A DNA stretch of 64,000 nucleotides from Actinomycetota bacterium. Its GTDB lineage: Bacteria > Actinomycetota > Actinomycetes > Mycobacteriales > Pseudonocardiaceae. The position numbers and the translations under genes were made by a program. The notes under the pieces were generated by a model. It was not told where the DNA came from. It searched no databases and worked only from the letters and a program-made list of their open reading frames with translations. The stretch is taken from assembly GCA_032230695.1 (NCBI GenBank), contig JAVXWP010000059.1:36080-100079 (forward strand). Direction: 5' to 3'. The stretch's first letter is position 1. Each line of letters begins with the position of its first letter. Of the stretch, positions 180 to 43,163 are shown piece by piece.

Positions 180-968
180 ATGCATCGTGAGACAAGAATT
201 GTCACCGCGTTCTCACAACTGTCGGATATCCAGGACCACGATTTCACCATAGCGTCGTACGCGAATACGCTGGCCCTCCACACGGTCCGGCTGCTCCAAG
301 TCGACGCGGCGGGCGTGCTGCTCGCCAGCGACACCGGCACCCTCGACCTGTACGGCGCCACGACCGACACCGCCCGGTTCCTGCAGCACACCCAGCTCGA
401 ACTCCAGGCCGGGCCGGGAATCGACAGCATTAGCGCGAACGAGATGGTCAGCGCTCCCGACCTGCGCACCGAAACCCGCTGGGGACGGCTCCCCCGGACA
501 GCGCTCAACGCCGGATTCGCCGCAATCTACGGCGTGCCCATGCGGCTGTGGTCGGACGCGATCGGATCCATTACCCTATTCCGGAAGTCCGCTGGCGATT
601 TCGGCGAAGACGAACTGATACTGAGCGAAGGGCTGGCGCACGTGGCTACCGCGTTCCTCCTGTCGCGACAGGCGATCGAACAAAGCGAGGACTCAAGTGT
701 GCGCCTGCAGCACGCGCTGGATACCCGCATCGCGATCGAGCAGGCCAAAGGCATCCTCGCCGAACGAGGTAAATGCACGCTGAACAGCGCTTTCAACGCG
801 ATACAGAACTTCTCCCGGCGCGACCGGCGGCCCCTGGTGGAGGTGGCACAGGCTGTCATCGACGACTCCCCCAGCGTGTCGGCGCTGACCATGCCGTCCA
901 CCGCACCCGCGCCTGGCCGGCACAGCGCGGTGCAGCGCAACCCGTCGCCGAGGCACCACCAACACTGA
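180..968 (+). CDS. GAF and ANTAR domain RNA-binding regulator (copy 1)
   Basis: GAF-like core (VDAAGVLL, AAIYGVPMRL, IGSITLF) followed by ANTAR signature TRIAIEQAKGILAER...AFNAIQNFSR. Confidence 0.9.
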   Translation: MHRETRIVTAFSQLSDIQDHDFTIASYANTLALHTVRLLQVDAAGVLLASDTGTLDLYGATTDTARFLQHTQLELQAGPGIDSISANEMVSAPDLRTETRWGRLPRTALNAGFAAIYGVPMRLWSDAIGSITLFRKSAGDFGEDELILSEGLAHVATAFLLSRQAIEQSEDSSVRLQHALDTRIAIEQAKGILAERGKCTLNSAFNAIQNFSRRDRRPLVEVAQAVIDDSPSVSALTMPSTAPAPGRHSAVQRNPSPRHHQH

Positions 969-1035
969 CCACCCACCAGCCCAGCAAATGCCCGCGTGTG
1001 AACCGGCCGCCGTAACCCGCACGGAAAGGTTCGCC

Positions 1036-1740
1036 ATGTCACCCGATCGGCGGCAGCAACTGCTGAGGTTACTCGGCCCCCGTGGCGATGACCAGACGTC
1101 GTTCCTGCGCCGGATCTGCGACCTGACCGTGAGCGAAACAGCCGTTTCCGGAGCCGCGGTGAGCGTTATGGGGCAACCCGGCGCACCAAATCACTACGCG
1201 CTCGTCTGCGCGACGGACGCGACGAGCATGGTGCTCGACGATCTGCGCCTGACCACGGGGGTCGGCCCCACCACGGAGGCGTTCACATCGGGAGGCCCGG
1301 TTCTCGTCTCCGACCTCGCCGCCAGCGGCTCCCGGTGGCCCGGGTTCACCGCTGAGGCCTGCGATTCGGGGGTCGCCGCCGTCTTTTCGTTCCCCTTGCA
1401 GATCGGCGCCGTCCGCATCGGCGTGCTCGAACTGCACCGAAGCACCGCCGGCGCCCTGCCGGACCACTCACTGAACGACGTGCTAACCCTGGCGGACATA
1501 GCGACACACATCGTACTGACCGATTTAGACGACGGCGGGGGGCTCACCGATGTCAGATGGCTCTCGGACATCCACGCGGTGGTCCACCAGGCCTCAGGAA
1601 TAGTCGCCGTGCAACTGAGCCTCAGCGTGCGGGACGCGCTGCTGCGCGTTCGAGCACACGCCTTCGCCAACCGGACACCGCTCAACGAAGTCGCTCGCCG
1701 CATCGTGACTCGAGAGCTTCGATTGGAGACCGAATCATGA
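1036..1740 (+). CDS. GAF and ANTAR domain protein (divergent HQASG-type, copy 2)
   Basis: Start taken at ATG 1036 after GGAAAGG (the track start at 988 is upstream). GAF core plus C-terminal VHQASGIVAVQL...ALLRVRAHAFANRTPLNEVARRIV. Its stop overlaps the next ATG (ATGA). Confidence 0.88.
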   Translation: MSPDRRQQLLRLLGPRGDDQTSFLRRICDLTVSETAVSGAAVSVMGQPGAPNHYALVCATDATSMVLDDLRLTTGVGPTTEAFTSGGPVLVSDLAASGSRWPGFTAEACDSGVAAVFSFPLQIGAVRIGVLELHRSTAGALPDHSLNDVLTLADIATHIVLTDLDDGGGLTDVRWLSDIHAVVHQASGIVAVQLSLSVRDALLRVRAHAFANRTPLNEVARRIVTRELRLETES

Positions 1741-2522
1741 CCGATATCAACAACACCACACTCGACACCGGGAGCACCGGCAGCAGCGCCGACCGGGTTT
1801 CCCGGGCTTTCGTGGAACTGGCGGACACGCTGGTCGACGACTTCGACACCATGGAATTCCTCGGCATGCTCGCCGAACGCTGCGTGGACCTGTTGGAGGT
1901 CGCGGCAGCCGGGGTGATACTGGTGGATTCCCGCGGTAATCTGCGAGTCGCGGCGGCGTCGTCGGAACGAGCCGAACTCCTGGAACTGCTGGCTATCCAG
2001 TCGCAGGACGGCCCCTGCATCGAGTGCGTCCACGACGGACAAGCTGTGAGCAGTCCGGACCTGACCCGGGAGACGGCTCGGTGGCCGGTGTTCGCGGAGG
2101 CGGCGCGGGCGGCCGGATTCAGGACAGCTCACGCGCTTCCGCTGCGGCTGAGGCGGCAGATCGTGGGCGTACTTACCCTGATGGGCCATTCGCCGGGTGA
2201 GATCGGCGCCGACAGCATCCGGCTGGGGCAGGCGCTGGCCGACGTCGCCACCATCGGCATTATCCAGCAACGCACAATCGAACGAGGAACGATACTTTCC
2301 GAGCAGCTGCAGACCGCGCTCAACAGTCGGGTCATCCTGGAACAGGCTAAAGGGGTGCTGTCGGAACTAGGCGGCAACCTGCCCATGAACGAGGCCTTCG
2401 AACTCCTGCGCAGGTACGCGCGCGCCCACGGCCGTCCCCTGACCGAACTCGCCCGGGCCATCGTGGAGCGGGTCACCGACGGGAACGCGATACTCGATTA
2501 TTCTGACAGCGCGACAAAATGA
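1737..2522 (+). CDS. GAF and ANTAR domain protein (copy 3)
   Basis: AFVELADTLVDDFD N-terminus, GAF core, SRVILEQAKGVL ANTAR motif; translationally coupled to copy 2. Confidence 0.9.
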   Translation: MTDINNTTLDTGSTGSSADRVSRAFVELADTLVDDFDTMEFLGMLAERCVDLLEVAAAGVILVDSRGNLRVAAASSERAELLELLAIQSQDGPCIECVHDGQAVSSPDLTRETARWPVFAEAARAAGFRTAHALPLRLRRQIVGVLTLMGHSPGEIGADSIRLGQALADVATIGIIQQRTIERGTILSEQLQTALNSRVILEQAKGVLSELGGNLPMNEAFELLRRYARAHGRPLTELARAIVERVTDGNAILDYSDSATK

Positions 2523-3109: not shown

Positions 3110-3143
3110 GAAATGTGTCCGGTTTCGATCCCGAACACATTTC
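3110..3143. promoter_or_regulatory. 13-bp inverted repeat with one mismatch, upstream of ANTAR copy 4 (hairpin or operator)
   Basis: GAAATGTGTCCGG (3110-3122) versus CCGAACACATTTC (3131-3143). Confidence 0.45.
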
Positions 3144-3201
3144 CGGGGTACCCCAATCGTTCGAACGCACCCAGGCGAGCAGCACCCGAGGAGGGTCGGC
3201 C

Positions 3202-3966
3202 ATGCACCGCGAGACTTCCATCGTTACCGCGTTCGTCGAACTGTCCGACATCCACGTCCAGGATTTCGCGATCGATGACTACGCAGACCTGTTGGTCCGC
3301 CATTCCATCTGGCTGCTGGGAGCCGACGCGGCGAGCCTACTCCTCATAGCCGAAGACGATCGGCTGTACGAATACGGTGCGACAGCGGCCGAAGTGAGAG
3401 ACCTCCAACTCCACCAGGTCCGGCACGACGCGGGGCCGAGCGTCGAGAGTTTTCGCAGCGGACGGCCAGTGGGCTCACCGGACGTTCACTCGGACCCACG
3501 CTGGGCAGAACTCAGTGGCACCCTGGCCGACACCGGGTTCGCCGCCATCCACGCCATCCCGCTGCGGATCCACGACGACGTGATCGGTTCGATCACGCTT
3601 TTCCGGCTGCGAACCGGTGCACTGACCGAAGACGAACTCGTCCTCGCCGAGGCGCTCGCGCACGTGGCCACGAGCTGCCTGCTCCTACGGCGGACCCTCA
3701 CCACCCACGACGTACTGGGCAAGCAGTTGCAGAAGGCATTGAGCAGCCGGGTGGCGATCGAGCAGGCTAAAGGCATTCTCGCCGAGCGCCGCGGTATCAC
3801 CCTCGTCGGCGCCTTCGAACTGATGCGAGCCTTCGCGCGGCGCGACCGGATCCTGCTCGACAAGGTGGCCCACGCCGTGATCGACGGCTCTCCCCAGGTT
3901 TCCGAACTGACCCTTCCCCGCGCGCAACCACCCGAACGTTCGGATCGGCACGGCCCTGCCCGGTGA
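3202..3966 (+). CDS. GAF and ANTAR domain protein (copy 4, closest paralog of copy 1)
   Basis: ATG 3202 after GAGGAGG; MHRETSIVTAF versus MHRETRIVTAF in copy 1; SRVAIEQAKGIL. Confidence 0.9.
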   Translation: MHRETSIVTAFVELSDIHVQDFAIDDYADLLVRHSIWLLGADAASLLLIAEDDRLYEYGATAAEVRDLQLHQVRHDAGPSVESFRSGRPVGSPDVHSDPRWAELSGTLADTGFAAIHAIPLRIHDDVIGSITLFRLRTGALTEDELVLAEALAHVATSCLLLRRTLTTHDVLGKQLQKALSSRVAIEQAKGILAERRGITLVGAFELMRAFARRDRILLDKVAHAVIDGSPQVSELTLPRAQPPERSDRHGPAR

Positions 3967-4020: not shown

Positions 4021-4324
4021 GAACGGAACACCAACATCACTTCGGGAGAAGAACTTCGACCCCTTGGGGCCCAGGGAATGATTTCCCTTCAGCATGGACA
4101 CATGCTCACACCTGCTGGCCCGCGCTGTGGACGAAATCGTCACGAGCATCGCGGCGACACCCATGCCGGCAGGTGATCTGAAAATCACCGCCACGGTCAG
4201 CGGAGGTTGCGCCGTCGGCCAGAACGACTCACCTGACGACCTGGCACATGCCGCGGATGTCCGGTTGTACGAAGCCAAGGCTGCCGGACGGAATCGGATC
4301 GTCGCCGCGCCCGGCGTCCGCTGA
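4021..4324 (+). pseudogene. diguanylate cyclase (GGDEF) remnant
   Basis: C-terminal GGDEF half is intact in one frame (ITATVSGGCA...LAHAADVRLYEAKAAGRNRIV). A degenerate GGEEF, reading SGEEL, lies at 4042-4056 in another frame. No N-terminus. Confidence 0.75.
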
Positions 4325-4471
4325 CCCGCGCAGGTGTTTTCACCTCAAAGCTCCCGGACGGAACCCAAAGCGCACCAGATACCGCAACCGTCGCCATGGA
4401 CGGTGTTCGCGGGCGCGCGGTGAGATCCGCACTGCCAGCTACGCATCCGATGCGAACGGGGAAGTCAGCCG

Positions 4472-5737
4472 ATGACCAGTACCCTCACCGCCCAGGCAGC
4501 CAGCCGTGGCCTGCCCCGGGTACTGCTCGTGGACGACGAACCGTCGATACTGGCCATCCTGCGCCGGCAGTTGCGGAACCACTACGAAATAGTCACCGCC
4601 ACCGACGGCCCGACCGGACTCGAACTGCTTCAGCACGGCGGTCCCTTCGCCGCGGTCGTCAGCGACATGAGCATGCCGATCATGGATGGGGCGACCTTCC
4701 TCGCCGGTGCGCGCGCGGCGGCGCGCGACACCGTCCGGATACTGCTCACCGGACAGTCCGACATCGACGCCGTGGTCGACGCGGTGAACCGTGGCCAGAT
4801 ATTCCGGTTCCTGTCAAAGCCGTGCCCGGCCGAAGTGCTCCAGGCATGCCTTCGCGACGCCGTCGATCAGCACCACCTCAGTCAAGCCCGAACCGAGATC
4901 CTCGAGCGAGCCACCAGAACGGTGCCGTCGCCGAGGATCACCTCCAACACCGCTCAGGCGGTGGCCGCGCTGGAGCAGGCCCTCGCGACCCATCAGTTGG
5001 TGGTCTGGTATCAGCCCATCGTCGACCTGCACAGCCAGAGAATCGTCGGCGCGGAAGCGCTCATTCGCTGGCAGCACCCCGAACGGGGCCTTGTACCGCC
5101 GGCTGAGTTCCTCCCGCTCGCGGAACAGAGCGGCGTGATCGTGCCAATCGGCCGATGGATACTCGAGCAGTCGTTCGCCGACGCCGCGACCTGGCCGGAT
5201 TCCGGCGGCCTTCCCTATTTCCTGGCCGTCAACGTTTCGACCCGCCAAGTCTGTGATCCCGCCTTCGTCGACGACGTGCGCAATGCGTTGCTGAAGAGCA
5301 CGCTTGGCGCCGGTTCGGTCAAGCTGGAGATCACCGAGTCGACGCTGCTCGAAGATCCCCGCCAGGCCGGGCGGACTCTGCAGCGCTTGCGGGACTTCGG
5401 CATCGAGATCTCGGTCGACGACTTCGGCACCGGGATCTGCTCGCTGAGCAACATCCGGGATCTTCCGATCGACGAGTTCAAGATCGACCGTTCGTTCATC
5501 GAGTCCCTCCCGGAAGCCACCTCGGTCGCCGTGGCGGAAACCATCATCCACCTTGGCCGGAATCTCGGGTTGGGCATCATTGCCAAAGGCATCGAAACCA
5601 CCGTCCAGTGGGACGCGGTCCGCAATCTCGGCTGTCACCTCGGACAAGGCTTCCTATTCGGCAAACCCATGGATCACAAGAGTTTCAAGCGGGCTTTGAG
5701 TCCAGGTTCGAAGCGGATAAAGAAGCCGCGGAAATGA
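4472..5737 (+). CDS. REC-EAL response regulator (c-di-GMP phosphodiesterase family)
   Basis: REC motifs VLLVDDE, VVSDMSMP, FRFLSKP; EAL motifs EALIRW, LEITE, DDFGTG, KIDRSF, QGFLFGKP; the EGxE motif reads KGIE. Confidence 0.92.
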   Translation: MTSTLTAQAASRGLPRVLLVDDEPSILAILRRQLRNHYEIVTATDGPTGLELLQHGGPFAAVVSDMSMPIMDGATFLAGARAAARDTVRILLTGQSDIDAVVDAVNRGQIFRFLSKPCPAEVLQACLRDAVDQHHLSQARTEILERATRTVPSPRITSNTAQAVAALEQALATHQLVVWYQPIVDLHSQRIVGAEALIRWQHPERGLVPPAEFLPLAEQSGVIVPIGRWILEQSFADAATWPDSGGLPYFLAVNVSTRQVCDPAFVDDVRNALLKSTLGAGSVKLEITESTLLEDPRQAGRTLQRLRDFGIEISVDDFGTGICSLSNIRDLPIDEFKIDRSFIESLPEATSVAVAETIIHLGRNLGLGIIAKGIETTVQWDAVRNLGCHLGQGFLFGKPMDHKSFKRALSPGSKRIKKPRK

Positions 5738-5754
5738 CGGGCACCGAAGTCCGC

Positions 5755-5857
5755 CGGGACTGAAAGAAAGGGCCTTCGAACCATTCCTCGCCACCAAACC
5801 GATCCGTAAAGGAACCGGCCGAAAGGAAACTCTGCTTGAGGATTTCCCTCAGTCTCG
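5755..5857 (+). ncRNA. candidate structured cis-regulatory leader RNA of the polysaccharide operon
   Basis: Closing helix CGGGACUGA (5755-5763)/UCAGUCUCG (5849-5857) encloses hairpins CCG-A-UCC-GUAAA-GGA-AC-CGG, CC-GAAA-GG and GAGG-AUUUC-CCUC, joined by A-rich linkers. Folded by eye only. Confidence 0.45.
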
Positions 5858-6015
5858 CGAGCTAACTCCTAATATTTGGATCGGGACCCACCGGTAACTC
5901 GACCACATTCAGGTGACATCGACGTCGGCGAAGCGAGAGGTGTGTATCGTGTCGAAGCACCGGCCCGGTCCTTGCCGCGAGAACACCGCAAAAAACACGA
6001 CCGGGTTGAGGTGAA

Positions 6016-7557
6016 ATGTATCTACACGATTTTCTTCCAGTGGCGCGAGCGCGCTGGCGGCTCGTTCTGGCCGGCATGCTGATCGGTTTGGCGAGCGCCG
6101 CGGCGATCACCTGGGCGACACCTCGGCAGTATTCCGCTCAAGTAACCATCTATGTATCGGCTCAAGCCGGCGCGGACAGCACGACCGCGGCATACCAGGG
6201 AAATCTGCTGTCCGAGCAAAAGATGAAGTCGTACACACAACTGCTGACGAGCCGCGGCGTCGCTCAGGATATCGCCGACCGGCTTGGGGCAGCCGACAAG
6301 ACGGACGACATCCAGCAGGCGATCGCCGCATCCTCCCAGCCGGATACGGTTCTGCTCACCGCTGTCGCCACGGACCGGTCCCCGCTGCGCGCGCAGCAGA
6401 TCGCGGACGTCGCCGGGGTCGCGTTCACCTCACTGGTGGCACGGCTGGAGACCCCCGTGCCCGGCCGCCCACCCGCTGTGACCGCCCAGGTCGTCGAATC
6501 CGCCAGTTTGCCGACAGTTCCGGTGACCCCGAGGCCGGCGATCAATACCGGCCTGGGAATCCTGCTGGGCCTGCTCGCGGGCTGCACGGCGGCCGCCGTG
6601 CGCCACCGGTTGGACACTTCGGTCAAATCCGTCGATGACGTGCTCGAGGTCACCGGATCTCCGAATCTGGGCAATATCGCCCACGACGCGAGTATCCCGG
6701 AGCATCCGCTCACTGTTCACGAGCATCCGAATTCACCCCGATCCGAAGCGTTTCGGAAGATTCGTACCAATCTCCAGTTCATCGATGTCGACCGGCCGCG
6801 AAAGACAATCGTTATCACCAGTTCGATGCCCGAGGAGGGAAAGACCACAACCCTGTGCAATCTCGCGATCGCGCTGGCCCAGGCCGGCCGGAAGGTCGTC
6901 GTGGTCGAGACCGACCTCCGACGCCCTCGCGCGGCCGACTACCTCGGTCTGGAAGGCGCGGTCGGTGTCACCAGCGTGCTCGCGGGCCGTGTGTCCTTGG
7001 ACAGCGCGGTACAGCCGTGGGGATCGGACATGTTCGACGTACTGTCCAGCGGCCCGATTCCCCCGAATCCGAGTGAGCTACTGGCATCAAGGCAAATGAG
7101 CAATCTGCTCGCCGAACTGAGCAACCGGTACGACATCGTTCTTCTTGACGCGCCGCCACTTCTTCCTGTCACCGACGCCGCCATCCTGGGTGCGGAATGC
7201 GATGGCGCCCTCCTGATAGTCCGGCACGGCAGGACCACTCGAAATCAGCTCAAGTCGGCCGTGTCCGCATTGGAAAGCGCCTCCGTCCGCGTTCTCGGAA
7301 CCGTATTGTCGATGACGCCGGAATCAGGCTCGGACGACTACTACCACTACTATGCGAGACTCACTGACGGAGGCCCTCAAACCAGGCCCATCCGGCCGAT
7401 TCCAGCGGTCAAGAGCCAGGCCCGCGCGGACGCCGCTCCCGCTAACGACTGTCCGACGCGCGAAATCGCTCGCGACGCCTCCTCAAGGAACGGACGCGGG
7501 ACACTGACCAGGCAATCCATTGGAGTTCGCAAACCGCGTCCCGGCGGCACGCCATGA
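6016..7557 (+). CDS. wzc: polysaccharide co-polymerase / BY-kinase fusion (Wzc-like)
   Basis: Two TM segments flanking a Wzz-like loop; SEAFRKIRTNL, Walker A PEEGKTT, A' ETDLRRP, Walker B LLDAPP, Tyr cluster DDYYHYY; RBS GAGGTG. Confidence 0.92.
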   Translation: MYLHDFLPVARARWRLVLAGMLIGLASAAAITWATPRQYSAQVTIYVSAQAGADSTTAAYQGNLLSEQKMKSYTQLLTSRGVAQDIADRLGAADKTDDIQQAIAASSQPDTVLLTAVATDRSPLRAQQIADVAGVAFTSLVARLETPVPGRPPAVTAQVVESASLPTVPVTPRPAINTGLGILLGLLAGCTAAAVRHRLDTSVKSVDDVLEVTGSPNLGNIAHDASIPEHPLTVHEHPNSPRSEAFRKIRTNLQFIDVDRPRKTIVITSSMPEEGKTTTLCNLAIALAQAGRKVVVVETDLRRPRAADYLGLEGAVGVTSVLAGRVSLDSAVQPWGSDMFDVLSSGPIPPNPSELLASRQMSNLLAELSNRYDIVLLDAPPLLPVTDAAILGAECDGALLIVRHGRTTRNQLKSAVSALESASVRVLGTVLSMTPESGSDDYYHYYARLTDGGPQTRPIRPIPAVKSQARADAAPANDCPTREIARDASSRNGRGTLTRQSIGVRKPRPGGTP

Positions 7558-8666
7558 TCTCCCGGAAGCGGGGAAAGCCTGACACGGCGGTTCCCCCGGA
7601 TACCGATGACGACCTCACGCGCGGGGCGACCGAACCGGAAAGCACCACAGCGCGACACCGGCGCAAGCCGGCGCATCGGATACTGCTCGTCCTTTCCATT
7701 GTCCTCGTCGGTGCGGTCACCCTTGCCACGGTCGGTCTGTACGTACTCACCGATTCCGTCGCGAATCAGGTCGTCCGCACACCCAACGTCTTCACCGGAC
7801 TCGATGAGGCGGCACGGCCGCCTGCCACGGAAGCGATGACCTTCCTACTGATCGGGACCGACTCGCTCGATCCCGATCACTCGGCCGACGAACCCCCCAA
7901 GGTGACCTTCGAACCGGGCTCGCAACGCAGCGATGTGATCATGCTCGTCCGGCTCGACAAGGACAGGTCCAAGGCCACGGTCGTCTCCCTGCCGCGAGAC
8001 AGCTGGGTGACTGTTCCGGGCTACGGCAACGAGAAGATCAACGCCGCCTACTCCTTCGGCGGACCGTCACTCCTCGTCCGGACCGTGGAGGCACTGACCC
8101 ACATCCGGGTCGACCATTTCGGGGTGATCGACTTCGCGGGGTTCCAATCGGTGATCGATCTCGTCGGCGGAATCGACGTCACCATCGACGCGGCGACCAC
8201 GGCGGGCGGGGTTTCGTTCCACGAGGGTGTGAACCATCTGAGCGGACTGCAGGCATTGTCCTATGTGCGCCAACGCAAAGGCCTCCCCCGCGGCGATCTC
8301 GACCGGGTCCGGCGACATCAAAACGCGCTGCGCGCACTGGTGACCAAGATCGCGTCCAGCACCACTCTTTCGCACCCCGCCGACAGCTACCGGCTTCTCG
8401 ACACCCTCAGCCAGTGGGTAAGGGTCGACGACACGTTCACCAACAACGGCCTGCGCTCATTCGTCTTCGGTCTGCGCGATCTCCGTCCGACCCAGGTCAC
8501 CTTCCTCACTGCTCCGGTAGGCGGACTCGGACGTGAAGGCTCACAATCGGTCGTCTATCTCGAACTCGACCGGGGGAGCGCGCTCTGGCATGCCCTTGGC
8601 ACCGGCCAAATCGACGCCTACGTGGTCATGCACCCGGAGGGCATTCTGGGCGTTTCGAGCCCATGA
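7554..8666 (+). CDS. LCP (LytR-CpsA-Psr) family glycopolymer transferase
   Basis: N-terminal TM; RSDVIML, SLPRDSWV, KINAAY, YVRQR, GDLDRVRRHQ motifs. Confidence 0.93.
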   Translation: MISRKRGKPDTAVPPDTDDDLTRGATEPESTTARHRRKPAHRILLVLSIVLVGAVTLATVGLYVLTDSVANQVVRTPNVFTGLDEAARPPATEAMTFLLIGTDSLDPDHSADEPPKVTFEPGSQRSDVIMLVRLDKDRSKATVVSLPRDSWVTVPGYGNEKINAAYSFGGPSLLVRTVEALTHIRVDHFGVIDFAGFQSVIDLVGGIDVTIDAATTAGGVSFHEGVNHLSGLQALSYVRQRKGLPRGDLDRVRRHQNALRALVTKIASSTTLSHPADSYRLLDTLSQWVRVDDTFTNNGLRSFVFGLRDLRPTQVTFLTAPVGGLGREGSQSVVYLELDRGSALWHALGTGQIDAYVVMHPEGILGVSSP

Positions 8667-9280
8667 CCTCATTGCGCGCACCGGAAGACACCTTCCGGAT
8701 CCTTTTCGTCTGCACCGCCAATATCTGCAGATCGCCGGTCGCGGAGATTCTGATGCGCCGGATGCTGATGGTGGGCCTGGGCACCGACCGAGCGGCGAGA
8801 TTCGCGGTGGAAAGCGCCGGTACTCATGCCGTCACCGGCGCGGCGATGAGCCTGCGTAGTCGCGCAGCACTCGCACCATGGGGACTCGGCAGCGACGCGG
8901 CGGGATCCGCTGCACGCCAAGTGGACGCCGAAATGGTCCGACAGGCCGACATCGTGCTCACCGCCGACCGGAATCATCGATCCTTCATCGTCGCGCTCGA
9001 GCCGTCAGCACTGCGCACAACGTTCTGCATCCGCGAATGGGACCGCCTGCTCCGTGGAAAAGGTCGCCGGCAGTTGCCACCCGACCCTGTCGCGCGAGCG
9101 CGTTCCATTTCGGCCGGAGCGCATTTGAGCCGGGGGACACTCATATACGCGTCTGCCGCTGACGACAGCATTCCTGATCCGGCCGGACTGCCGATGTCGG
9201 CCCATCGCTCCGCGATGCGGATGATCGCATCGGCCGTCCAACGTACCGTCGACATTCTTACCATTGGAACAACCACTTGA
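8663..9280 (+). CDS. low-molecular-weight protein tyrosine phosphatase (Wzb-like)
   Basis: P-loop FVCTANICRS (CX5R), VESAGT, IPDP general-acid motif. Confidence 0.9.
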   Translation: MTSLRAPEDTFRILFVCTANICRSPVAEILMRRMLMVGLGTDRAARFAVESAGTHAVTGAAMSLRSRAALAPWGLGSDAAGSAARQVDAEMVRQADIVLTADRNHRSFIVALEPSALRTTFCIREWDRLLRGKGRRQLPPDPVARARSISAGAHLSRGTLIYASAADDSIPDPAGLPMSAHRSAMRMIASAVQRTVDILTIGTTT

Positions 9281-9318
9281 ATTTATCGATAGTATCCGAA
9301 CAGCTATTTTTGCCGACA

Positions 9319-9344
9319 CCGGCCGCTCGGCCGGCATTGCTCTT
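9319..9344 (+). terminator. possible weak intrinsic terminator after the phosphatase gene
   Basis: CCGGCC-GCTC-GGCCGG (9319-9334) followed by CATTGCTCTTTC. Confidence 0.35.
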
Positions 9345-9379
9345 TCATAAGGAAACATTCCATTTTTTCCTCAGAACAG

Positions 9380-9431
9380 CCTGAACCGGTGAAAGTTGCG
9401 CCGCCACCCAAGAGCGGTGCTACGGTTCAGG
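9380..9431 (+). promoter_or_regulatory. nested stem-loop in the 338-nt mid-operon gap
   Basis: CCTGAACCG (9380-9388)/CGGTTCAGG (9423-9431) enclose GCGCCGC/GCGGTGC with a GTGAAAGTT bulge. Confidence 0.45.
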
Positions 9432-9618
9432 GACAACAATTAATCTTCCCCGCGGATTCTCCATGGACCCTGCGGTATTCCGGGGCACTTCGAAGACAAT
9501 TGCCGAGCCGAAAGTTCAGTACGTCGACGTCAGGCTTCGGCCGGCTTCCTGGCGGTCCTGCGCTGCCGGATTCGCGGACGTCGCATGTGTAGTAAACGAA
9601 GAATACCGAGGTATCACA

Positions 9619-30103: not shown

Positions 30104-30145
30104 CCGAGATGTCCCAGTGCGACGCGGTGCACTGGAACATCTCGG
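30104..30145 (-). terminator. 17-bp stem-loop immediately downstream of pilA
   Basis: CCGAGATGTCCCAGTGC (30104-30120)/GCACTGGAACATCTCGG (30129-30145), followed by TTT on the minus strand. Confidence 0.7.
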
Positions 30146-30150
30146 CGGGA

Positions 30151-30543: not shown

Positions 30544-31072
30544 CGTCCGATTTCCGACAAATTGGCCGGCAACGTTCAACGAAAAAATCAACCGGATGCC
30601 CCTCACCGCGCGGGGCTTCCGATTGCTTCGTGTAACCCGGATTTCCATCTGGAAGCGTGACCGAACGCGAACAGCAACCACAGCAGGTGAATGGCCGACA
30701 CTGCGCCCCGTCGGGCGGACGGTTGTCGGCCAGACGGTCAGCCATTCGTATGACGTGTCGTCCGTTCGGCCGACAATGCATGGGTGATGTGGGCCTCCCC
30801 CCGCGAAATCGCGAGTGTTCTATGATCGACTGGGTTCGTGTTCGAGGTTGGCTTGCCAACGGCCCCGCAAGAAACACAAACCGGCAGATCACGGCCCAGA
30901 AACCCGCCGAGTGGTCGGCAATCGAGTGCAGGACCGGCATGCCGCACCTGCCCTGCACCTCAATTGAAACCGACATGCTCCTTTCAAGGATACGCATTCC
31001 TTCGCCAGCCGCGACCCGCGGATCGGTGAACGGAAGGAAATGCGGACACCTCGATGGTCAGGGAAGGAAATC

Positions 31073-33141: not shown

Positions 33142-33206
33142 TCGCGTCCGGGCGGTCCGTACCCAGGCCGCCGGTGACCCCTAGGGGCCCTGTCCCCCCA
33201 TCGACG

Positions 33207-33752
33207 TCATCGGCCTCGGCAGGATGCCGATCGCACAGCGATATGGGGTGAACTCGTGTTGCGAAGTAGCCGGCCCTCGGTCAGCCGGACGGCCACCTGC
33301 CAAACGGGCTCGCGTCCGGCGGCCGACTCGAACGCCGCCACGGCCGATGCGGCTGAGTCCCCTTGACCGCCTTGAAGATCGCAAAGGTACGGAGCCTCCC
33401 GCCTGAATTCGCGGAGCCAGTCCCGGACGGTCGTTTCCGGCAATCGCATGCGCAAAGCGATTCGCCGATAACCCAAGCCGCGGACATGTTCGGTGAGAAC
33501 CCGCCAGATGGTGGCTGCTTCATACGCCCGCCGGACCAGCGTCCAGCCCGGCAGCAGAACGTGGGTGACCTGACAATTCGAGCATCGTGTCCGCCGCGGC
33601 TGCACAATTCGATCCGGCCCCCAGAGGACGCGAATCGCACGCGCCCTCGCCACGCCCCACGGCCGCAGTCTCCCCTGACACACAGGGCACCGAAGTCGGC
33701 CGGACGCCAGCGTCAGTTCCAGCGCGCTACCCGATTCCATGGTCAGCCTCAT
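33207..33752 (-). mobile_element. transposon-associated Zn-finger/HTH protein (DUF6431-like), orphan
   Basis: CPVCQGRLRPWGVAR...RRTRCSNCQVTHVLLP...RRAY...GYRRIALRMRLPETTVRDWLR. This pattern normally precedes an actinobacterial DDE integrase/transposase; none is present here. Confidence 0.7.
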
Positions 33753-33911
33753 GTCAACCTCTCATTCATTCGGTCCGCGGGGCATCGTCACCGCACGCCC
33801 GAACCGAAAAGATCGAACTCGTCTCGTCGGCCTGTTTTGCTCAGGTCGAGCGATAATCTGCCGATATACACAACAGGAGCCCAACGACAGCGCAGCGGAA
33901 TCGGGCGACGC

Positions 33912-36754: not shown

Positions 36755-37522
36755 TCAGCCCACGTGGTAAATATTTCGCAGGCCAGCCAGGTCACCTGCC
36801 GCGAGAAAACGTTTGGAGATGTCGCAAGGCGAGGTACTCGGGCTCATCGTCTGTGCGGCGTGCGCGCCCTGGGCGACGTGCTCCAGGCCGGCAGTGTGAC
36901 CACGTTCGTGGGTCATGACGGAGCCGAGGTCGTAGGCCCCGACACAGTTGGCTTGTTTGGTGGTGAACCACTGATGCGCCTTGTTGTCGATCAGCACATC
37001 CGCACTGAGCACCACGCCCGTCGACACCCTGTAATACGCGCAGGTATAGGCGAGATAGGAAGAGGGCAGAGTTCCCCAGCTAACGACGCTGCGACCGTCG
37101 TTCCCGTTGCAGACGCTGTACGGCGAAACCTGCGCGACTCGGCCGGTTGTCCCCCCGTACTGCTGTGTGGTCGGCAGATTGGGCGCGCTCACACAACGGT
37201 TTTGCCCCGCTGCGACAACCTGCGATGACGCCGTGATCGTGCTCAGCGCGGTGGACGCGACCGAAGCCGGGGCGTTGGCAGGGTTGTAGTACCAGAGAAA
37301 GTTGGTGGCCAAGTGCCATGGCTTCAGCGCATACGAGAAGTCGCCGCACGCCGGGTCCACCGCCGCGGCCGCTGGGGCGGACGCACTGCCGGCTCCGGCA
37401 ACAATGCCTTCGGCCACCACACCGATATCGTTTTGGTCGGGACCTGCCCTGATCGGGCTAATAGCCATCACAATGGCGGCAGTGGAGATAACGCTGAGCC
37501 ACCTTTGAAAAATTCGACTCAT
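36755..37522 (-). CDS. secreted matrixin-like (metzincin) zinc metalloprotease
   Basis: ATG 37522 after GAAAGG; signal peptide; HERGHTAGLEH (HExxHxxGxxH) and Met-turn QTMSP. Confidence 0.85.
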   Translation of the reverse strand: MSRIFQRWLSVISTAAIVMAISPIRAGPDQNDIGVVAEGIVAGAGSASAPAAAAVDPACGDFSYALKPWHLATNFLWYYNPANAPASVASTALSTITASSQVVAAGQNRCVSAPNLPTTQQYGGTTGRVAQVSPYSVCNGNDGRSVVSWGTLPSSYLAYTCAYYRVSTGVVLSADVLIDNKAHQWFTTKQANCVGAYDLGSVMTHERGHTAGLEHVAQGAHAAQTMSPSTSPCDISKRFLAAGDLAGLRNIYHVG

Positions 37523-37772
37523 GGACAGCACCTTTCGCTGATAGTGAGGTGATCAGCGTCAGGTTTGCTGGTCGGCGGAGCGTTGCAGGCGCATACCAGG
37601 TGTGGTTCAGGAGCGTTCCGCGGATCGGTCACCCCCAGGGAACGACGCGTTCAGGTGAATGTGGTCAATCGCGGCTGAGGCGCCTGGAGCAAGACGATCA
37701 GTCCGACGTACCGTGAAGGGTCCACGTAAATGGCCATCTGGTCGCATTTGCCACGAACCGAAAGGAGTTGAG

Positions 37773-39599
37773 TTGCCCAATCCGCCGGCAAGTCCGCCCG
37801 ACCAAACCACGGAGGGAGCTGGACAACTCGCCGATCTTACCGTCGGCGCCGTCGAGCTGCTGTTCACCGGGACGGCGACGCATGAATCCGTTGATCGGTT
37901 CGCCAGGCAACTTCGAGCAACGGGCGGTATCCGTTCGGTTTTCCCCGTCGACCGCAGGAAACTCGACCGAAGACCAGGTGATCGCCGAACGCGCACCAAC
38001 ATCAGGATTCCGCTCCGATCCGAAGTTTCTCCACGTGGTCAGGCCCCGTTCCAGGAAGGCGCTGATTCCCTCATCGTCGAACTCGCGGAGCCAGGCGACT
38101 CTCGATGGTACGGCTCGGATCAGCGCCGACGCCTGGAATCGACCCTCGCACTGATCACGACCGCAGTCTCGAACTACTCACCGGTCGAACCCACATCGTC
38201 CTCGTCGCAGTTCGACGACGGGCGATCCGGCGTCGTCAGCTTTGACTGCCACGGGCGATCACTGATTTCCGGCCGGCTGGCTTCGATTCTCGGCTACCCG
38301 ATGGGCGGGGCGGTCAAGACGAGAGCACTTTCGCTGGTCGATCCCCGAGATCGAGGGGATGCGGTCCGGGGTTTCGCAGCCGCGCGCGACACATCTTCGG
38401 CCACGCGACCGCAGGACCTCCGCGTCCAAGGCGAGAACGGCACTTGGAAGGTGCTGGAAACGGTTTTCCTCCCAGTGTCGTCCGAACCCGATCCGCACGT
38501 CGTCGCCTACGCAATGGACGTAACAGAGAACAGGGCCGAAAGAGCGCGACTGTACGCGACGGTGATGACGTCAGGATGCATGGCGATGGTGACCGATGAG
38601 CGGGGGGAGCTCAGCCTGAGCAACGACACATTCATTCAGATGTTCCCCGGCCCCGGTACGCCTCGAATCGGCACTGCGCGTGACGCCGCTTTGCACGCGA
38701 TCTCCGATAGATGTCTCGACGAAGCGGGCGCGTACCGGCATCTGACCGACCTGGTGTCCCAGCCGGGCCTCCACGCGGAACGCTTCGAGCTGGCCGATGG
38801 GCGGATCGTCTCCCTGGATCTGATACCGCTGAAGGACGACCGACGTACGCTCGGCACCGCGTGGCATTTTCACGACGTTACGCCGGCCGAACCGACTACC
38901 ACGACCGAGATGCAGGCAGAATTCCTGTCCACATTGTCACACGAGCTCCGCACGCCGTTGACCGCGCTTCTCAGTTTCGTGGATCTCCTATCCGACCGGC
39001 GGCTGGGATCCTTGAACCGAGACCAACGGTCGGCGACCGACGTCATCTCCCGCAATACGAAGCATTTGCTAAGGCTTGTCGACGACCTGCTCCTGTTGAC
39101 GATGCTGGAAAGCAGGCAGGTGCCGATGAGGGCAACCGAGGTCGACGTGGGCCGGCTGGTGCGCGCTGCGGTCGCGGACCGCGAGCTCGACGCTCGCGCA
39201 GGCGGAATCACGATCACCGCGGAGATAGGGAAAGGGCCGCCCTTGCGCGGCGATGCGGAACGTCTGCATCAGGTCGTGTCGAACATACTTGGCAACGCCG
39301 TGAAGTTCACCCATGCCCAAGGCAAGATCAATGTCACCGCTGAATTCGACCATCACCATTGGACGATCAATGTCCATGACACCGGGATCGGTATTCCCGC
39401 TGAGGATTTGGGACGTATCACCAAGAGTTTCAGTCGAGGTGCCAACGCGCGACACGACGGCATCGCGGGCAGCGGCCTCGGCCTTGCGGTGACACGGCAT
39501 ATCGTGGAACTGCATCACGGTAGTCTCGACATTGACAGCATCCTCGATGTGGGCACCACGGTGCGAGTCTCGCTGCCCGTGGATTCGACGAGCTCATGA
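37773..39599 (+). CDS. PAS-containing sensor histidine kinase
   Basis: Probable TTG start after AAGGAG; H-box FLSTLSHELRTPL, N-box SNILGNAVKF, DTGIGI, GSGLGL. Confidence 0.9.
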   Translation: MPNPPASPPDQTTEGAGQLADLTVGAVELLFTGTATHESVDRFARQLRATGGIRSVFPVDRRKLDRRPGDRRTRTNIRIPLRSEVSPRGQAPFQEGADSLIVELAEPGDSRWYGSDQRRRLESTLALITTAVSNYSPVEPTSSSSQFDDGRSGVVSFDCHGRSLISGRLASILGYPMGGAVKTRALSLVDPRDRGDAVRGFAAARDTSSATRPQDLRVQGENGTWKVLETVFLPVSSEPDPHVVAYAMDVTENRAERARLYATVMTSGCMAMVTDERGELSLSNDTFIQMFPGPGTPRIGTARDAALHAISDRCLDEAGAYRHLTDLVSQPGLHAERFELADGRIVSLDLIPLKDDRRTLGTAWHFHDVTPAEPTTTTEMQAEFLSTLSHELRTPLTALLSFVDLLSDRRLGSLNRDQRSATDVISRNTKHLLRLVDDLLLLTMLESRQVPMRATEVDVGRLVRAAVADRELDARAGGITITAEIGKGPPLRGDAERLHQVVSNILGNAVKFTHAQGKINVTAEFDHHHWTINVHDTGIGIPAEDLGRITKSFSRGANARHDGIAGSGLGLAVTRHIVELHHGSLDIDSILDVGTTVRVSLPVDSTSS

Positions 39600-40330
39600 C
39601 GAGAATACTCGCGGTGGAGGACGACCGGGATATCGCTCTGGCACTGCGACTTGTATTCGAACGAGCAGGATACGACTTCGTTTCCGCACCGGACGGACGA
39701 TCCGGCCTCCGGCTGTTGCACGACAGGCGACCGGACCTCGTGATACTCGACATCGGCTTGCCGGGGATGGACGGCTGGGCAGTCCTGGAACGAATCCGGG
39801 ACCTAGCCGATGTCCCGGTGGTCGTGTTGAGCGCGCATAGCCTTGAAACCGACAAGGTCCGAGCTCTTCGCGGCGGCGCGGACGATTACGTGACCAAGCC
39901 GTTCGCCAATGACGAACTGCTCGCCAGGGCGGAGGCCCTGCTGCGGCGGTCGGACAACTCCCGCACATCCGGCGACGGCTGGGGAAGCGTCTACCGCGAC
40001 AGCGCGGTGCAGATCAATCCGAAGACCCGATCGGTCCACGTCACCTGCGGGACTGTCGACCGGGAGGTCTGTCCGACCAACACAGAATTCCGGTTGCTCA
40101 ATGTGCTCGTTCGGCATGCGGGCGCAGTCCTCACGGCGAGGCAACTGCTTGCCCTGGTGTGGGATGACCCGTCCGGCATGGGCCCGGAGAGGGTGAAATT
40201 CGCGGTACTCAGATTGCGCCGCAAGCTCGGCTGGGACACTGAGCACTCCCCCATTCGCGCAGTCCGCGGAGTCGGCTACCGGTACGTCCTCCCCGGTGGG
40301 GATCACCCGTCCGACGAAGTCCGCGACTGA
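39596..40330 (+). CDS. OmpR-family response regulator
   Basis: ILAVEDD, VILDIGLPG, DDYVTKPF, winged helix RLRRKL...AVRGVGYR; ATGA-coupled to the kinase. Confidence 0.93.
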   Translation: MTRILAVEDDRDIALALRLVFERAGYDFVSAPDGRSGLRLLHDRRPDLVILDIGLPGMDGWAVLERIRDLADVPVVVLSAHSLETDKVRALRGGADDYVTKPFANDELLARAEALLRRSDNSRTSGDGWGSVYRDSAVQINPKTRSVHVTCGTVDREVCPTNTEFRLLNVLVRHAGAVLTARQLLALVWDDPSGMGPERVKFAVLRLRRKLGWDTEHSPIRAVRGVGYRYVLPGGDHPSDEVRD

Positions 40331-40874: not shown

Positions 40875-42509
40875 ATGCGAAAACTACTGGACGCCACGTC
40901 CTGCGTCCCGGCCGACTCGACGCTGCCCGATGTACTCCGGCGGATCGTAGCGTCGGCGTGCGAACTGACCGACGCCCGCCACGGAGCCATCGGCGTTCTC
41001 GACCCCGAGGGCGAATTATCGGACTTTGTCACCGTGGGTGCTGACCGGGAAGTGATCGGCAAGCTCCCCGCCGGTCATGGCATTCTCGGCCTGCTCATCC
41101 ACGATCCGAGACCGTTGCGCCTTGCCGACCTGCGGAGCCACCCCGACTCGTGCGGTTTTCCGCCGGGGCATCCGCCGATGCGCTCGTTTCTCGGCGTGCC
41201 GATCCGCACCCGCAAGTCGGTCCTCGGCAGCCTCTATGTAGCCGAGAAACGTCATGGCGCCGAATTCACCCTGCACGACGAAGAACTGCTCGCCGCGTTA
41301 GCCGCCGCGGCATGTGCGGCGATCGGAAACGCAATTCTGTTCAAGGAGATGCGCCTGCGTGAAGATTGGCTGGCGGCTTCCCATCAGGTGACCAGCGCAT
41401 TGCTCGACGGCGGCGCGCCCAACGCCACGTTTCGCCTGATCGCCGAACGCGCACGGGTGGTCGCCGGGGCTTCGCTCGCGGCCATCGCCCGGCCCATGGC
41501 CAGTCACCGCTCGACCCTCATGTTCGAAGTCGTCGACGCCGCGGATCCCCGCGAACACGACCGGATGGCCGGGATGACCGTCCCCGCCGACGGGACCGCG
41601 ACTGGACTCGCCTTCACCGGTGGACGTCCGGTGGCGATTCGTCACTACGGCGACGAAGTCGTGGCCCAGCAAGCCGGTTCCTCACTCCGGCTCCCTGCGA
41701 TGGTGAAAGACCTGGACTCCGCGGTAGCAGTCCCCCTCATCGTCGACACCGTCACGCTCGGTGTCCTCGTGGTGGCCAGGTTCAGGAAAGTCGACCCGTT
41801 CACCGATTCCGAGGTGCGGCTCATCCAGACCTTCGCGGGGCACGCGGCTCTTGCGTTGGAGTTCGCACGCCTCGACGAGGATCGCCAACGGCTCGCGGTC
41901 TTCGAGGACCGTGACAGGATCGCCCGTGACCTGCACGACCTGGTTATTCAGCGACTCTTCGCGACAGGCCTGGGCTTGGAGGGGCTCAGCAGGCTGATCG
42001 CGAAGGCGGAGATCGCGGACCGGGTCATCGGTTTCGTCCGTGACATCGACCGGGCGATTCACGACGTGCGCAACAGCATCTTTTCCTTGCAGGAACCGGC
42101 CGAGTCTCATGGCAGCCTCCGGTCCGAACTCCTGCGGCTGGCGATCGAATCCTCAGACGCACTGGGTTTCGAACCTCGGATCGGTTTCGAAGGCCCGCTG
42201 GACACCCTGGTGCCTGACAGTGTCCGTGCCGACCTGATCGCCACCGTGCGCGAAGCCTTGTCCAACGTGTCCCGGCATTCCGCAGCGACGACGGTCTCCG
42301 TCGAGGCCGTCGTCGATCCGCGCGGGCGTCAGCTGACCCTGACTGTCACCGACGACGGCGTCGGCATTTCCGACCAACCCGCACGGCGCAGCGGGCTTGC
42401 CAATCTCAGCGAGCGCGCCGACCGCTGGAGTGGAACGTTTTCCGTGCGACCGGGCGGAAAACTCGGGACGATACTGACTTGGTCGATTTCCTTGCCGGCG
42501 AGAAGATGA
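40875..42509 (+). CDS. GAF-GAF HisKA_3 sensor kinase, DosS/DevS-like
   Basis: GFPPGHPPMRSFLGVPI (heme-His region retained), RIARDLHDLVIQRLFA, EALSNV, DDGVG. Confidence 0.92.
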   Translation: MRKLLDATSCVPADSTLPDVLRRIVASACELTDARHGAIGVLDPEGELSDFVTVGADREVIGKLPAGHGILGLLIHDPRPLRLADLRSHPDSCGFPPGHPPMRSFLGVPIRTRKSVLGSLYVAEKRHGAEFTLHDEELLAALAAAACAAIGNAILFKEMRLREDWLAASHQVTSALLDGGAPNATFRLIAERARVVAGASLAAIARPMASHRSTLMFEVVDAADPREHDRMAGMTVPADGTATGLAFTGGRPVAIRHYGDEVVAQQAGSSLRLPAMVKDLDSAVAVPLIVDTVTLGVLVVARFRKVDPFTDSEVRLIQTFAGHAALALEFARLDEDRQRLAVFEDRDRIARDLHDLVIQRLFATGLGLEGLSRLIAKAEIADRVIGFVRDIDRAIHDVRNSIFSLQEPAESHGSLRSELLRLAIESSDALGFEPRIGFEGPLDTLVPDSVRADLIATVREALSNVSRHSAATTVSVEAVVDPRGRQLTLTVTDDGVGISDQPARRSGLANLSERADRWSGTFSVRPGGKLGTILTWSISLPARR

Positions 42510-42518
42510 GAGTGAAAC

Positions 42519-43163
42519 GTGACGATTTCCGTGTTCCTGCTGGATGACCACGAGATCGTCCGCGCCGGGCTGCGGACTCTGCTGGAAGCCGAGGGCGACA
42601 TCCGGGTGACCGGTGAGGCCGGATCGGTCACCGAAGCGCTGACCTGCCTTCCCGTGGTGCGACCGGATGTCGCGATCCTCGACATCCGGCTCCCCGACGG
42701 TGAAGGCGTCACAGTGTGCCGTGATATCCGCTCCTCCATGGTTCCTCCACCCGCCTGCCTGATGCTCACGTCCTTTGCAGATGACGACGCCTTGTTCGGG
42801 GCGATCATGGCCGGTGCGGCCGGGTACGTGCTCAAGCAGGTTTCCGGCTCCAGCATCGTTTCCGCGGTGCGCACGGTTGCCGCCGGCGGGTCGCTACTGG
42901 ACTCCAGCTTGATAACTTCCGTTCTCCGCAGGCTCAGAGGCGAAAGCGGTGGCGGAGACACTGGCTATTCCCGGCTGAGTCCCCAAGAACGCCGAGTGCT
43001 CGACCAAGTCGCCTGCGGTCGCACCAACCGGCAGATCGCATCCCGGCTCCACCTGTCCGAGAAGACGGTCAAGAACTACGTGTCATCCTTACTCCACAAG
43101 CTCGGATTCGAGCGTCGCACCGAAGCCGCGGTGTATGCGGCGAAACGTAGGGCCGACAACTGA
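42519..43163 (+). CDS. LuxR-family response regulator, DosR/DevR-like
   Basis: VFLLDDHEIVR, ILDIRLPDG, MLTSF, GYVLKQ, TNRQIA...EKTVKNYVSSLLHKLG. Confidence 0.93.
   Translation: MTISVFLLDDHEIVRAGLRTLLEAEGDIRVTGEAGSVTEALTCLPVVRPDVAILDIRLPDGEGVTVCRDIRSSMVPPPACLMLTSFADDDALFGAIMAGAAGYVLKQVSGSSIVSAVRTVAAGGSLLDSSLITSVLRRLRGESGGGDTGYSRLSPQERRVLDQVACGRTNRQIASRLHLSEKTVKNYVSSLLHKLGFERRTEAAVYAAKRRADN

Follow-up and report, generated by a model that had tools for sequence, protein, structure and literature searches.

A probable mosaic island of surface and signalling genes beside a tRNA-Arg gene in a Pseudonocardiaceae genome, trimmed of its type IV pilus and a REC-GGDEF regulator

The window analysed here, a 64,000-nucleotide stretch of one contig (C165:36080-100079) from a draft genome of the Pseudonocardiaceae (6.65 Mb, 190 contigs, 93.6% complete), carries a low-GC block of about 47.5 kb that runs from a tRNA-Arg(TCT) gene (C165:33801-33876, 2.2 kb to the left of the window) to about 45.3 kb of the window. 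This block is a real genomic island, foreign-looking to its genus. Probably it is a mosaic of surface and signalling modules from which a type IV pilus and a REC-GGDEF response regulator have been deleted, in which a flagellar-type sigma factor has been kept for a PAS-GGDEF-EAL protein of cyclic di-GMP (c-di-GMP) signalling, and whose tandem array of four GAF-ANTAR genes has its targets elsewhere. An earlier note, written from the letters alone, had proposed that the region is a lifestyle-switch island joining ANTAR RNA regulators, c-di-GMP, exopolysaccharide, pili and sigma-28. With genes called by GC3 and proteins scanned with Pfam and NCBIfam, every gene type in its inventory of positions 180-43163 is recovered: five GAF-ANTAR genes, two c-di-GMP modules, a Wzx/Wzy locus, a pilus relic, both sigma factors and a DosS/DosR-like pair (Table 1). 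Comparison drew on metagenome contigs of about 90% identity (L051/L052, L140 and L048, hereafter the sister lineage) and on independent assemblies of 97.7-98.8% identity (L055, L056 and L143).

The block is read as an island because of its tRNA-Arg gene, an integrase remnant, bracketing repeats, low GC and third-position GC (GC3), and marker genes that other species of the genus lack or rarely carry. Directly after the tRNA lies a frameshifted integrase remnant (C165:33881-35100), collinear with an intact tyrosine integrase elsewhere in the genome (C105:87815-88995; 41-59% translated identity by tblastx) and weakly matched to PF00589 (Phage_integrase; E=6.5e-4) in a genome-wide scan; scanned directly, the integrase fragments give no significant Pfam match, and tblastn against plasmids was empty. 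A portion of the remnant (C165:34829-35025) is repeated, with unchanged orientation, near the other end of the low-GC segment, which is thus bracketed by integrase-derived direct repeats. GC content is 64.1% in C165:33877-81339 against 67.2% in the flanks, in a genome whose GC in 5-kb steps has a standard deviation of 1.6%, and genes inside have a mean GC3 of 0.750 and those of the flanks one of 0.831 (Mann-Whitney p=1e-8), the values ranging over 0.80-0.93 to the left of C165:32.5 kb and to the right of about 46 kb of the window and over 0.63-0.82 between. Three genomes of the same genus (G033, G038 and G046) share the gene order of C165:441-33561, with amino-acid identities of 57-94%, and in all of them the match stops at the tRNA-Arg; G046 has the same tRNA in the same place, followed by unrelated DNA. 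A search of 100 other genomes of the genus turned up no orthologue of the island's REC-EAL regulator, only EAL-domain matches of about 40% identity to GGDEF-EAL proteins, and 185,579 species genomes likewise gave no orthologue, only distant EAL proteins; the FliA-like sigma has no orthologue in 24 other genomes of the genus, which offer only WhiG at 33-36% identity; and Wzc is present in 2 of 60. The composition scan and sister comparison that the earlier note had suggested thus delimit a block at whose tRNA-Arg border synteny ends, and its claim of an island is borne out.

The decay within the island is equally concrete. In L051 and L052, whose DNA is 90-91% identical to window positions 4143-15236, a gene that ends in a CheW-like domain (E=1.4e-9) runs into the beginning of a complete REC-GGDEF gene (305 aa), which is followed by REC-EAL and the polysaccharide locus. 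This REC-GGDEF aligns with the window only from 4143 onward, to the left of which the window has unrelated sequence and ANTAR4; about 60 last codons survive, about 245 have been deleted, and the whole genome contains no CheW domain. The pilus genes tell the same story. L140 and L048, two contigs of a single sample joined by an identical overlap of 127 bases, together present an epimerase, the LGFP and DegT-like genes, ANTAR5, the extracytoplasmic function (ECF) sigma, a small open reading frame (ORF) and a NarL regulator; then intact genes for prepilin peptidase, a protein of 520 amino acids (aa), minor pilins, PilC, PilB, PilT and PilA; and then the FliA-like sigma, a ketoacyl synthase (KS), DUF6431, PAS-GGDEF-EAL and an M10-like gene. 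In the window pilB and pilT are scraps of 20-60 codons and pilC is gone. No T2SSE-family ATPase and no flagellin is encoded anywhere in the genome, and taking an intact pilin, peptidase, ATPases and platform protein as what defines a type IV pilus system, the island no longer encodes one. Because the identical GGDEF stump is found in L055 and L056 and the large pilus deletions in L143, these are not assembly artefacts; because REC-GGDEF and the genes from pilD to pilA are intact in the contigs of about 90% identity, both decays are real deletions from an earlier intact state. L143 lacks the extra A of the window's pilA, having a 22-nt deletion in that gene, and such differing lesions are to be expected once a gene has lost the machinery it served. 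Deletions in this genome and its closest relatives took the pilus machinery, most of REC-GGDEF and the upstream Che-type gene, and left the polysaccharide genes, the EAL proteins and the sigma intact, much as the earlier note had supposed when it described a decayed pilus arm and one decayed c-di-GMP pair beside an intact polysaccharide arm.

The polysaccharide locus is 91% identical in L051, with the same gene lengths, and has no paralogues elsewhere in the genome. It opens with a Wzc/BY-kinase (TIGR01007, 171.8 bits against a cut-off of 108), LCP, LMW-PTP, CapD, an epimerase and UDP-glucose dehydrogenase and continues with a double GT4 gene, a GT4 gene, Wzy, Wzx, a hexapeptide acetyltransferase, a Bac_transf priming transferase and a further epimerase. 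The Wzx/Wzy pathway set (Bac_transf, Polysacc_synt, O-ag_pol_Wzy, and Wzz with a P-loop kinase) is complete, and with the LGFP and DegT-like genes the region extends over 6016-25577, with three GT4 genes and two epimerases.

The surviving c-di-GMP proteins may differ in activity. The PAS-GGDEF-EAL protein has its motifs intact (an RxxD I-site in the arrangement RxxD-N5-GGDEF, EALxR, DDFGTG, KID and EGVE), and its start codon and length are the same as in L048. In the EAL domain of RocR the E of AEGIE is needed for catalysis. REC-EAL has AKGIE at this place (window 5480-5500, residues about 340-350), for which reason its EAL domain may be catalytically impaired, and the protein could bind c-di-GMP without hydrolysing it; AKGIE is confined to the clade of at least 88% identity, homologues of 73% identity or less having AEGIE. 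A divergent pair of KS and PAS-GGDEF-EAL genes also lies elsewhere in the genome (C94:1247-5319; 65% and 57% identical to the island pair), and 982-aa GGDEF-EAL proteins found throughout the genus are 56-57% identical to the island PAS-GGDEF-EAL, about as the C94 copy is.

The sigma factor is the other survivor. It is 90% identical in L048, where it lies beside, and divergent from, the intact pilus operon (pilA), and its best family is TIGR02479, at 173.2 bits under a cut-off of 189.6. The nearest named homologues (51-56%) belong to Planobispora, Planomonospora, Pilimelia, Dactylosporangium, Spirillospora, Spirilliplanes and Cryptosporangium; those of Pilimelia and Planobispora (53-55%) lie between flgN and flagellin genes, and in Planobispora a GGDEF-EAL gene is a few kb away. 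A flagellar-associated, RsiG-independent WhiG1 clade has been described for which pili and c-di-GMP enzymes are predicted to be frequent targets (Denis et al. 2026, PMC12871210), and by homology the island sigma is of this flagellar type. The analogy that the earlier note drew with the c-di-GMP-dependent WhiG/RsiG pair is consequently not supported: the genome's own WhiG, of the RsiG type, is on C187 (273 bits, conserved across the genus) and is 34% identical to the island sigma. A scan with the consensus CTCA/TMAA-N16-GCCGA (PMC12871210) found one exact match in promoter position, the -10 box of which ends 45 nt before the PAS-GGDEF-EAL start; L048 has both boxes unchanged and 5 substitutions in the 16-base spacer. 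The genome contains 135 such motifs in 13.3 Mb of single strand, which gives a chance of about 0.0015 for any one 150-nt upstream region. None was found before the polysaccharide genes, in the sister lineage as in the window.

Taken together, four modules may be distinguished. A c-di-GMP front end (REC-GGDEF and REC-EAL, probably Che-fed in the sister lineage) lies directly upstream of the Wzx/Wzy locus; a trio of DegT-like, GAF-ANTAR and ECF sigma genes with a NarL-type regulator forms the second module; the third consists of a pilus operon and, diverging from it, a flagellar-type sigma-28 with the ketoacyl synthase and PAS-GGDEF-EAL behind it; and two-component systems, including a DevS/DevR-like haem sensor, make up the fourth. 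In the sister lineage a Che-type pathway would phosphorylate REC-GGDEF and REC-EAL and so set c-di-GMP for the adjacent polysaccharide locus, and sigma-28 would serve both the pilus operon and PAS-GGDEF-EAL. In the trimmed island the sigma may have been retained since it still drives PAS-GGDEF-EAL from its sigma-28-type promoter, and the island would now act only on the c-di-GMP level and on matrix production and no longer on adhesion by pili. The sister lineage, too, has the polysaccharide, ANTAR5/ECF, pilus, FliA and GGDEF-EAL modules next to one another, and to this extent the earlier claim of a co-inherited module stands. It does not extend to an old or widespread unit: linkage is limited to a narrow lineage of about 88% identity or more and dissolves at 72% or less, REC-EAL homologues at 72% (L144) and 52-55% (L053, L054) having other neighbours (a luciferase-like gene, PAS histidine kinases), and the sigma homologues in G026 and G023 having no pilus, KS or GGDEF-EAL neighbours. 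Linkage confined to close relatives points to a recently assembled mosaic rather than to an old conserved unit.

The GAF-ANTAR genes are where the proposed regulatory link must be judged. ANTAR domains score 54-61 bits in four of the five proteins. Genome-wide, 12 ANTAR genes exceed the Pfam cut-off (with a weak 13th match below it), 5 ANTAR genes being counted within the island region, as are 2 of the 6 EAL genes; with the tandem array counted once, clustering of both ANTAR loci (Poisson P=6e-4) and EAL genes (4e-4) is above chance. The tandem ANTAR1-4, 32-49% identical to one another, are also present in L055 (97.7% identical), and their best outside homologues are at most 52% identical, a metagenome scan with ANTAR4 giving nothing closer. 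Since the gene before REC-GGDEF in L051 has a CheW domain and is not an ANTAR gene, the junction of ANTAR1-4 with the c-di-GMP and polysaccharide module is derived; the deletion or rearrangement that truncated REC-GGDEF would also have placed the array there. ANTAR targets bear a signature of dual stem-loops with hexaloops having A at position 1 and G at position 4 (PMC8164766). A scan for two stems of at least 4 bp with ANNGNN hexaloops and a linker of 2-25 nt, controlled by dinucleotide shuffles, found 6 such dual hairpins in the island against 4.9 +/- 2.7 in shuffles, none of them in a polysaccharide leader; the only pair close to the start of a gene (33165-33198, ahead of KS) is not conserved in L048, and Rfam gave no match, either under its gathering thresholds or with E relaxed to 5. 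Further, among 80 metagenome loci with ANTAR4 homologues (401 kb) no Wzc, glycosyltransferase, polysaccharide-gene or DegT neighbour was seen, and GGDEF-EAL genes were present in two. The earlier suggestion that ANTAR proteins control polysaccharide synthesis is thus not supported, adjacency alone tying ANTAR1-4 to the locus, and the array most likely regulates RNA targets other than the polysaccharide locus. In two genomes of other families GAF-ANTAR genes adjoin GGDEF-EAL, two in tandem in G023 (L027, G023:C10, 8808-12441) and one in G026 (L026, G026:C82, 11951-14007), and adjacency of ANTAR and c-di-GMP genes may recur independently. Elsewhere in the present genome a GAF-ANTAR gene 54% identical to ANTAR4 lies about 4-8 kb from a DosR/DosS-like pair (C138:48719-57162).

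ANTAR5 has different company. The order DegT-like, ANTAR, ECF sigma is kept in L140 (89%), L143 (99%) and L141/L142 (72%), and at 72% identity (L141) the trio occurs without the polysaccharide locus. Each of the four relatives examined (72-99% identity) has A or R at the lysine position of the DegT-like protein, so that loss of the lysine is conserved and not recent decay. There is a slim chance that the three genes form a sensory unit in which the lysine-less DegT-like protein binds a nucleotide-sugar intermediate, as an aminotransferase no longer active, and reports envelope-polysaccharide status to the RNA-binding ANTAR5 and to the ECF sigma. A second SigD/ShbA-like ECF sigma gene stands beside an ANTAR gene elsewhere in the genome (C139:51174-52239).

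Several observations weigh against the picture of an acquired and trimmed island. The sigma-28 promoter is a single match, with a rough chance of 0.01-0.04 over the island's promoter regions, and pilA lacks one, in the sister contigs as in the window. The central polysaccharide genes are near-native in GC (0.68). No tRNA-derived attR (a copy of the tRNA 3' end) was detected, the bracketing repeat being integrase-derived instead, and the right border is based on composition and this repeat only, the right flank being without synteny to relatives. L055 and the contig part company precisely where the left repeat has its outer edge, and the junction of tRNA and island is therefore seen in one assembly only. 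Some of these points would suit an old, variable chromosomal neighbourhood that other species have lost, in which low GC reflects gene function and the tRNA and integrase are incidental: the missing attR, the native-like GC of the polysaccharide genes, the possession of most of the block by the sister lineage, and the variable, unrelated DNA that relatives too have after the tRNA-Arg. We nevertheless consider this quite improbable, in light of the sharp GC3 shifts at the tRNA and at about 46 kb, the integrase remnants at both ends, the lack of orthologues of the FliA-like sigma and REC-EAL in 24 and 100 other genomes of the genus and the rarity of Wzc (2 of 60), the provenance of the nearest named sigma relatives from other, zoosporic families, and the native paralogues elsewhere in the genome of the KS/GGDEF-EAL pair, the DosS/R-like pair and the ECF sigma. 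That the pseudogenes and junctions are sequencing or assembly artefacts of a 190-contig draft would agree with the pilA frameshift, a single extra A in a homopolymer run, and with a tRNA/island junction that L055 does not replicate; yet three independent assemblies reproduce the GGDEF stump and kilobase-scale pilus deletions, collinearity of the integrase remnant with the intact gene continues across position 34828, and such an explanation is very hard to credit.

The remaining alternative, that ANTAR proteins bind the polysaccharide leaders and together with c-di-GMP and sigma-28 set matrix production as one integrated lifestyle-switch regulon, is unlikely, if somewhat less so than an old neighbourhood. 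In its favour, ANTAR genes flank the polysaccharide locus on both sides; ANTAR5 is the last co-directional gene after the LGFP and DegT-like genes, in an order kept down to 72% identity; wzc and capD have long leaders, that of capD being about 88% conserved in L051; and GAF-ANTAR genes stand beside GGDEF-EAL genes in other families. However, dual hairpins are at shuffled frequency and absent from the polysaccharide leaders, Rfam is empty, and a 56-nt hairpin-rich segment of the wzc leader (5803-5858) is missing in L051, where the 135 nt nearest wzc are almost invariant; the ANTAR1-4 junction is derived, the 80 homologue loci lack polysaccharide-gene and DegT neighbours, and the trio does without the locus in L141. 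A mosaic island that has lost its pilus and REC-GGDEF by deletion thus remains the probable account.

Table 1. Features of the window discussed in the text (window coordinates; L-numbers are metagenome contigs)
Feature	Position	Strand	Basis and remarks
GAF-ANTAR1	180-968	+	Pfam
GAF-ANTAR2	988-1740	+	Pfam; ANTAR score 27.0 against cut-off 27.3, marginal
GAF-ANTAR3	1737-2522	+	Pfam
GAF-ANTAR4	3115-3966	+	Pfam
REC-GGDEF (WspR-like) stump, 76-codon ORF	4094-4324	+	GGDEF profile positions 103-161 only
REC-EAL response regulator	4472-5737	+	Pfam
Wzx/Wzy-dependent polysaccharide locus, co-directional	6016-22121	+	Pfam, NCBIfam
LGFP-repeat beta-helix surface protein	22365-24020	+	Pfam
DegT-like protein	24021-25577	+	Pfam; without Schiff-base lysine (SFCRDA...GEGG)
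GAF-ANTAR5	25739-26527	+	Pfam
SigD/ShbA-like ECF sigma	26591-27274	-	NCBIfam, 200.6 bits against cut-off 209
Small membrane ORF	27275-27562	-	Beside ECF sigma
NarL/LuxR-type response regulator	27749-28387	-	Pfam; divergent from pilD remnant; 88% identical to L140 regulator
Type IV pilus wreck, about 1.9 kb of broken genes	28639-30499	.	ORFs against intact sister operon (L140+L048); N_methyl motif
pilD remnant	28639-29144	+	Middle lost; GxGD aspartate replaced by arginine (GMGLGRVRL vs GMGPGDVRL)
Pieces of 520-aa gene and minor-pilin gene	29164-29726	-	520-aa gene keeps its ends only
pilB scrap	29778-29840	-	Sister comparison
pilT scraps	29921-30103	-	Sister comparison
pilA	30151-30499	-	+1 frameshift, one extra A in A-run 30362-30365
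FliA/WhiG-like (sigma-28 type) sigma, intact	31040-31948	+	Pfam regions r2, r3, r4
Ketoacyl synthase (KS)	31951-33111	-	Pfam; 96% identical in L048
DUF6431/HTH gene	33207-33752	-	Pfam; 89% identical in L048
Candidate sigma-28-type promoter, CTCA-N16-GCCGATAT	33840-33867	+	Pattern scan; sole exact match in promoter position
PAS-PAS-GGDEF-EAL, 919 aa	33912-36671	+	Pfam
M10-like peptidase	36755-37531	-	Pfam; 83% identical in L048
HisKA histidine kinase	37659-39599	+	Pfam
OmpR-type regulator	39596-40330	+	Pfam
DevS/DosT-like GAF-GAF-HisKA_3 kinase	40875-42509	+	Pfam; PDB phmmer
NarL-type regulator, adjacent to DevS-like kinase	42519-43163	+	Pfam
ECF sigma	43496-44257	+	Pfam; among last low-GC3 genes
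Small lipoprotein gene	44554-44988	-	ORF; among last low-GC3 genes
Integrase-derived direct repeat, right copy	45110-45260	+	blastn to C165:34829-35025: 93% identity over 42 nt and 84% over 100 nt

Among the right-hand genes the GAF-GAF-HisKA_3 kinase is DevS/DosT-like and a predicted haem-GAF sensor: its GAF-A domain matches DevS/DosT at E=3e-40 (PDB phmmer), with the haem His and the Tyr kept and GHPPMR and LYV aligned. Closer, native-looking DosS/R paralogues (53% and 69% identity) are found on C35, and this pair is probably native. Near the left border, L055 carries an IS5-type transposase (DUF4096 and DDE_Tnp_1, L055:816-1653) exactly where the left repeat begins (C165:34828), and the breakpoint at C165:34828 is common to three sequences, exact to the base. 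To the right of the island, an M48 peptidase gene (46096-48372) and an ECF-DUF6596 sigma gene (58188-59636) have 60%-identical homologues in G033 and G038, which there adjoin each other at the opposite end of the 33-kb syntenic block; the displacement points to rearrangement or paralogy. A tRNA-SeC called by ARAGORN at 59664-59753 is probably a false positive, no Rfam tRNA or tRNA-Sec match appearing even at E up to 5.

The island shows in dated steps how a non-motile actinomycete pares down a surface-behaviour island that it has acquired: first the pilus machine and the Che-fed cyclase were lost, after which the orphaned pilin decayed in sister strains independently, and the polysaccharide genes were retained together with the flagellar-type sigma-28 and its probable GGDEF-EAL target. 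It is also a natural test of the recent proposal that WhiG/FliA-family sigmas of Actinomycetota commonly drive c-di-GMP enzymes. A new regulatory principle is not established by the island; the recurring DegT-like/ANTAR/ECF trio is worth testing. A sensory unit of this kind, if real, would link an ANTAR circuit to the synthesis of cell-surface glycans, a connection not known to have been described before.

More broadly, each module has a counterpart in a known system and departs from it. Tyrosine integrases beside tRNA genes characterise the tRNA-associated islands and integrative elements of actinomycetes, with which the present island shares a tRNA-adjacent integrase, atypical composition, patchy distribution in the genus and a surface and regulatory cargo; here, however, the integrase is frameshifted and internally deleted, the bracketing repeat of about 150-200 bp derives from the integrase 3' end in place of a tRNA-derived attR, and no transfer or replication genes were seen. 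In the Wsp system of Pseudomonas, WspR (REC-GGDEF) makes the c-di-GMP that drives Pel/Psl, and the sister contigs, with a CheW-like gene overlapping REC-GGDEF and then REC-EAL and the polysaccharide locus, resemble it in gene order only; in this genome, which is without Che genes, REC-GGDEF is cut to about 60 codons. Like Streptococcus cpsA-D and Bacillus epsA-O, the locus opens with a chain-length/BY-kinase, LCP and a phosphotyrosine phosphatase, followed by CapD, sugar-nucleotide enzymes, glycosyltransferases, Wzy, Wzx and a priming transferase, but its kinase is a single fused Wzc-like protein, its phosphatase is of the LMW-PTP type, and c-di-GMP response regulators lie upstream and the LGFP beta-helix protein downstream. 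The predicted haem sensor follows the mycobacterial DevS/DosT-DevR system of hypoxia and redox sensing in its GAF-GAF-HisKA_3-HATPase architecture, its GAF-A match with haem His and distal Tyr and its adjacent NarL-type regulator, and differs in being an extra, island-borne copy.

In Actinoplanes missouriensis, FliA1-3 control flagella and the type IV pili of zoospores. The island sigma would be comparable to such zoosporic FliA proteins of the WhiG1 clade in that its best named homologues lie in flagellar clusters, the sister sigma is divergent from a pilus operon and a candidate sigma-28-type promoter precedes the island GGDEF-EAL gene; unlike them, it scores below the TIGR02479 cut-off, is a second sigma alongside the genome's WhiG in a host without flagellin, pilus ATPase or CheW, and has no sigma-28 motif before pilA. 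With the ANTAR regulators EutV, AmiR, NasR and mycobacterial PdtaR (PMC8164766) five island proteins share the ANTAR output domain, and the N-terminal GAF sensor is an architecture recovered in most relatives searched, but the island has no target RNA motif above chance, and a lysine-less DegT-like protein and an ECF sigma are unusual partners. The WhiG regulon of Rubrobacter, which includes pili and genes for diguanylate cyclases and phosphodiesterases (PMC12871210), is a further parallel to an island sigma accompanied by pilus and GGDEF-EAL genes.

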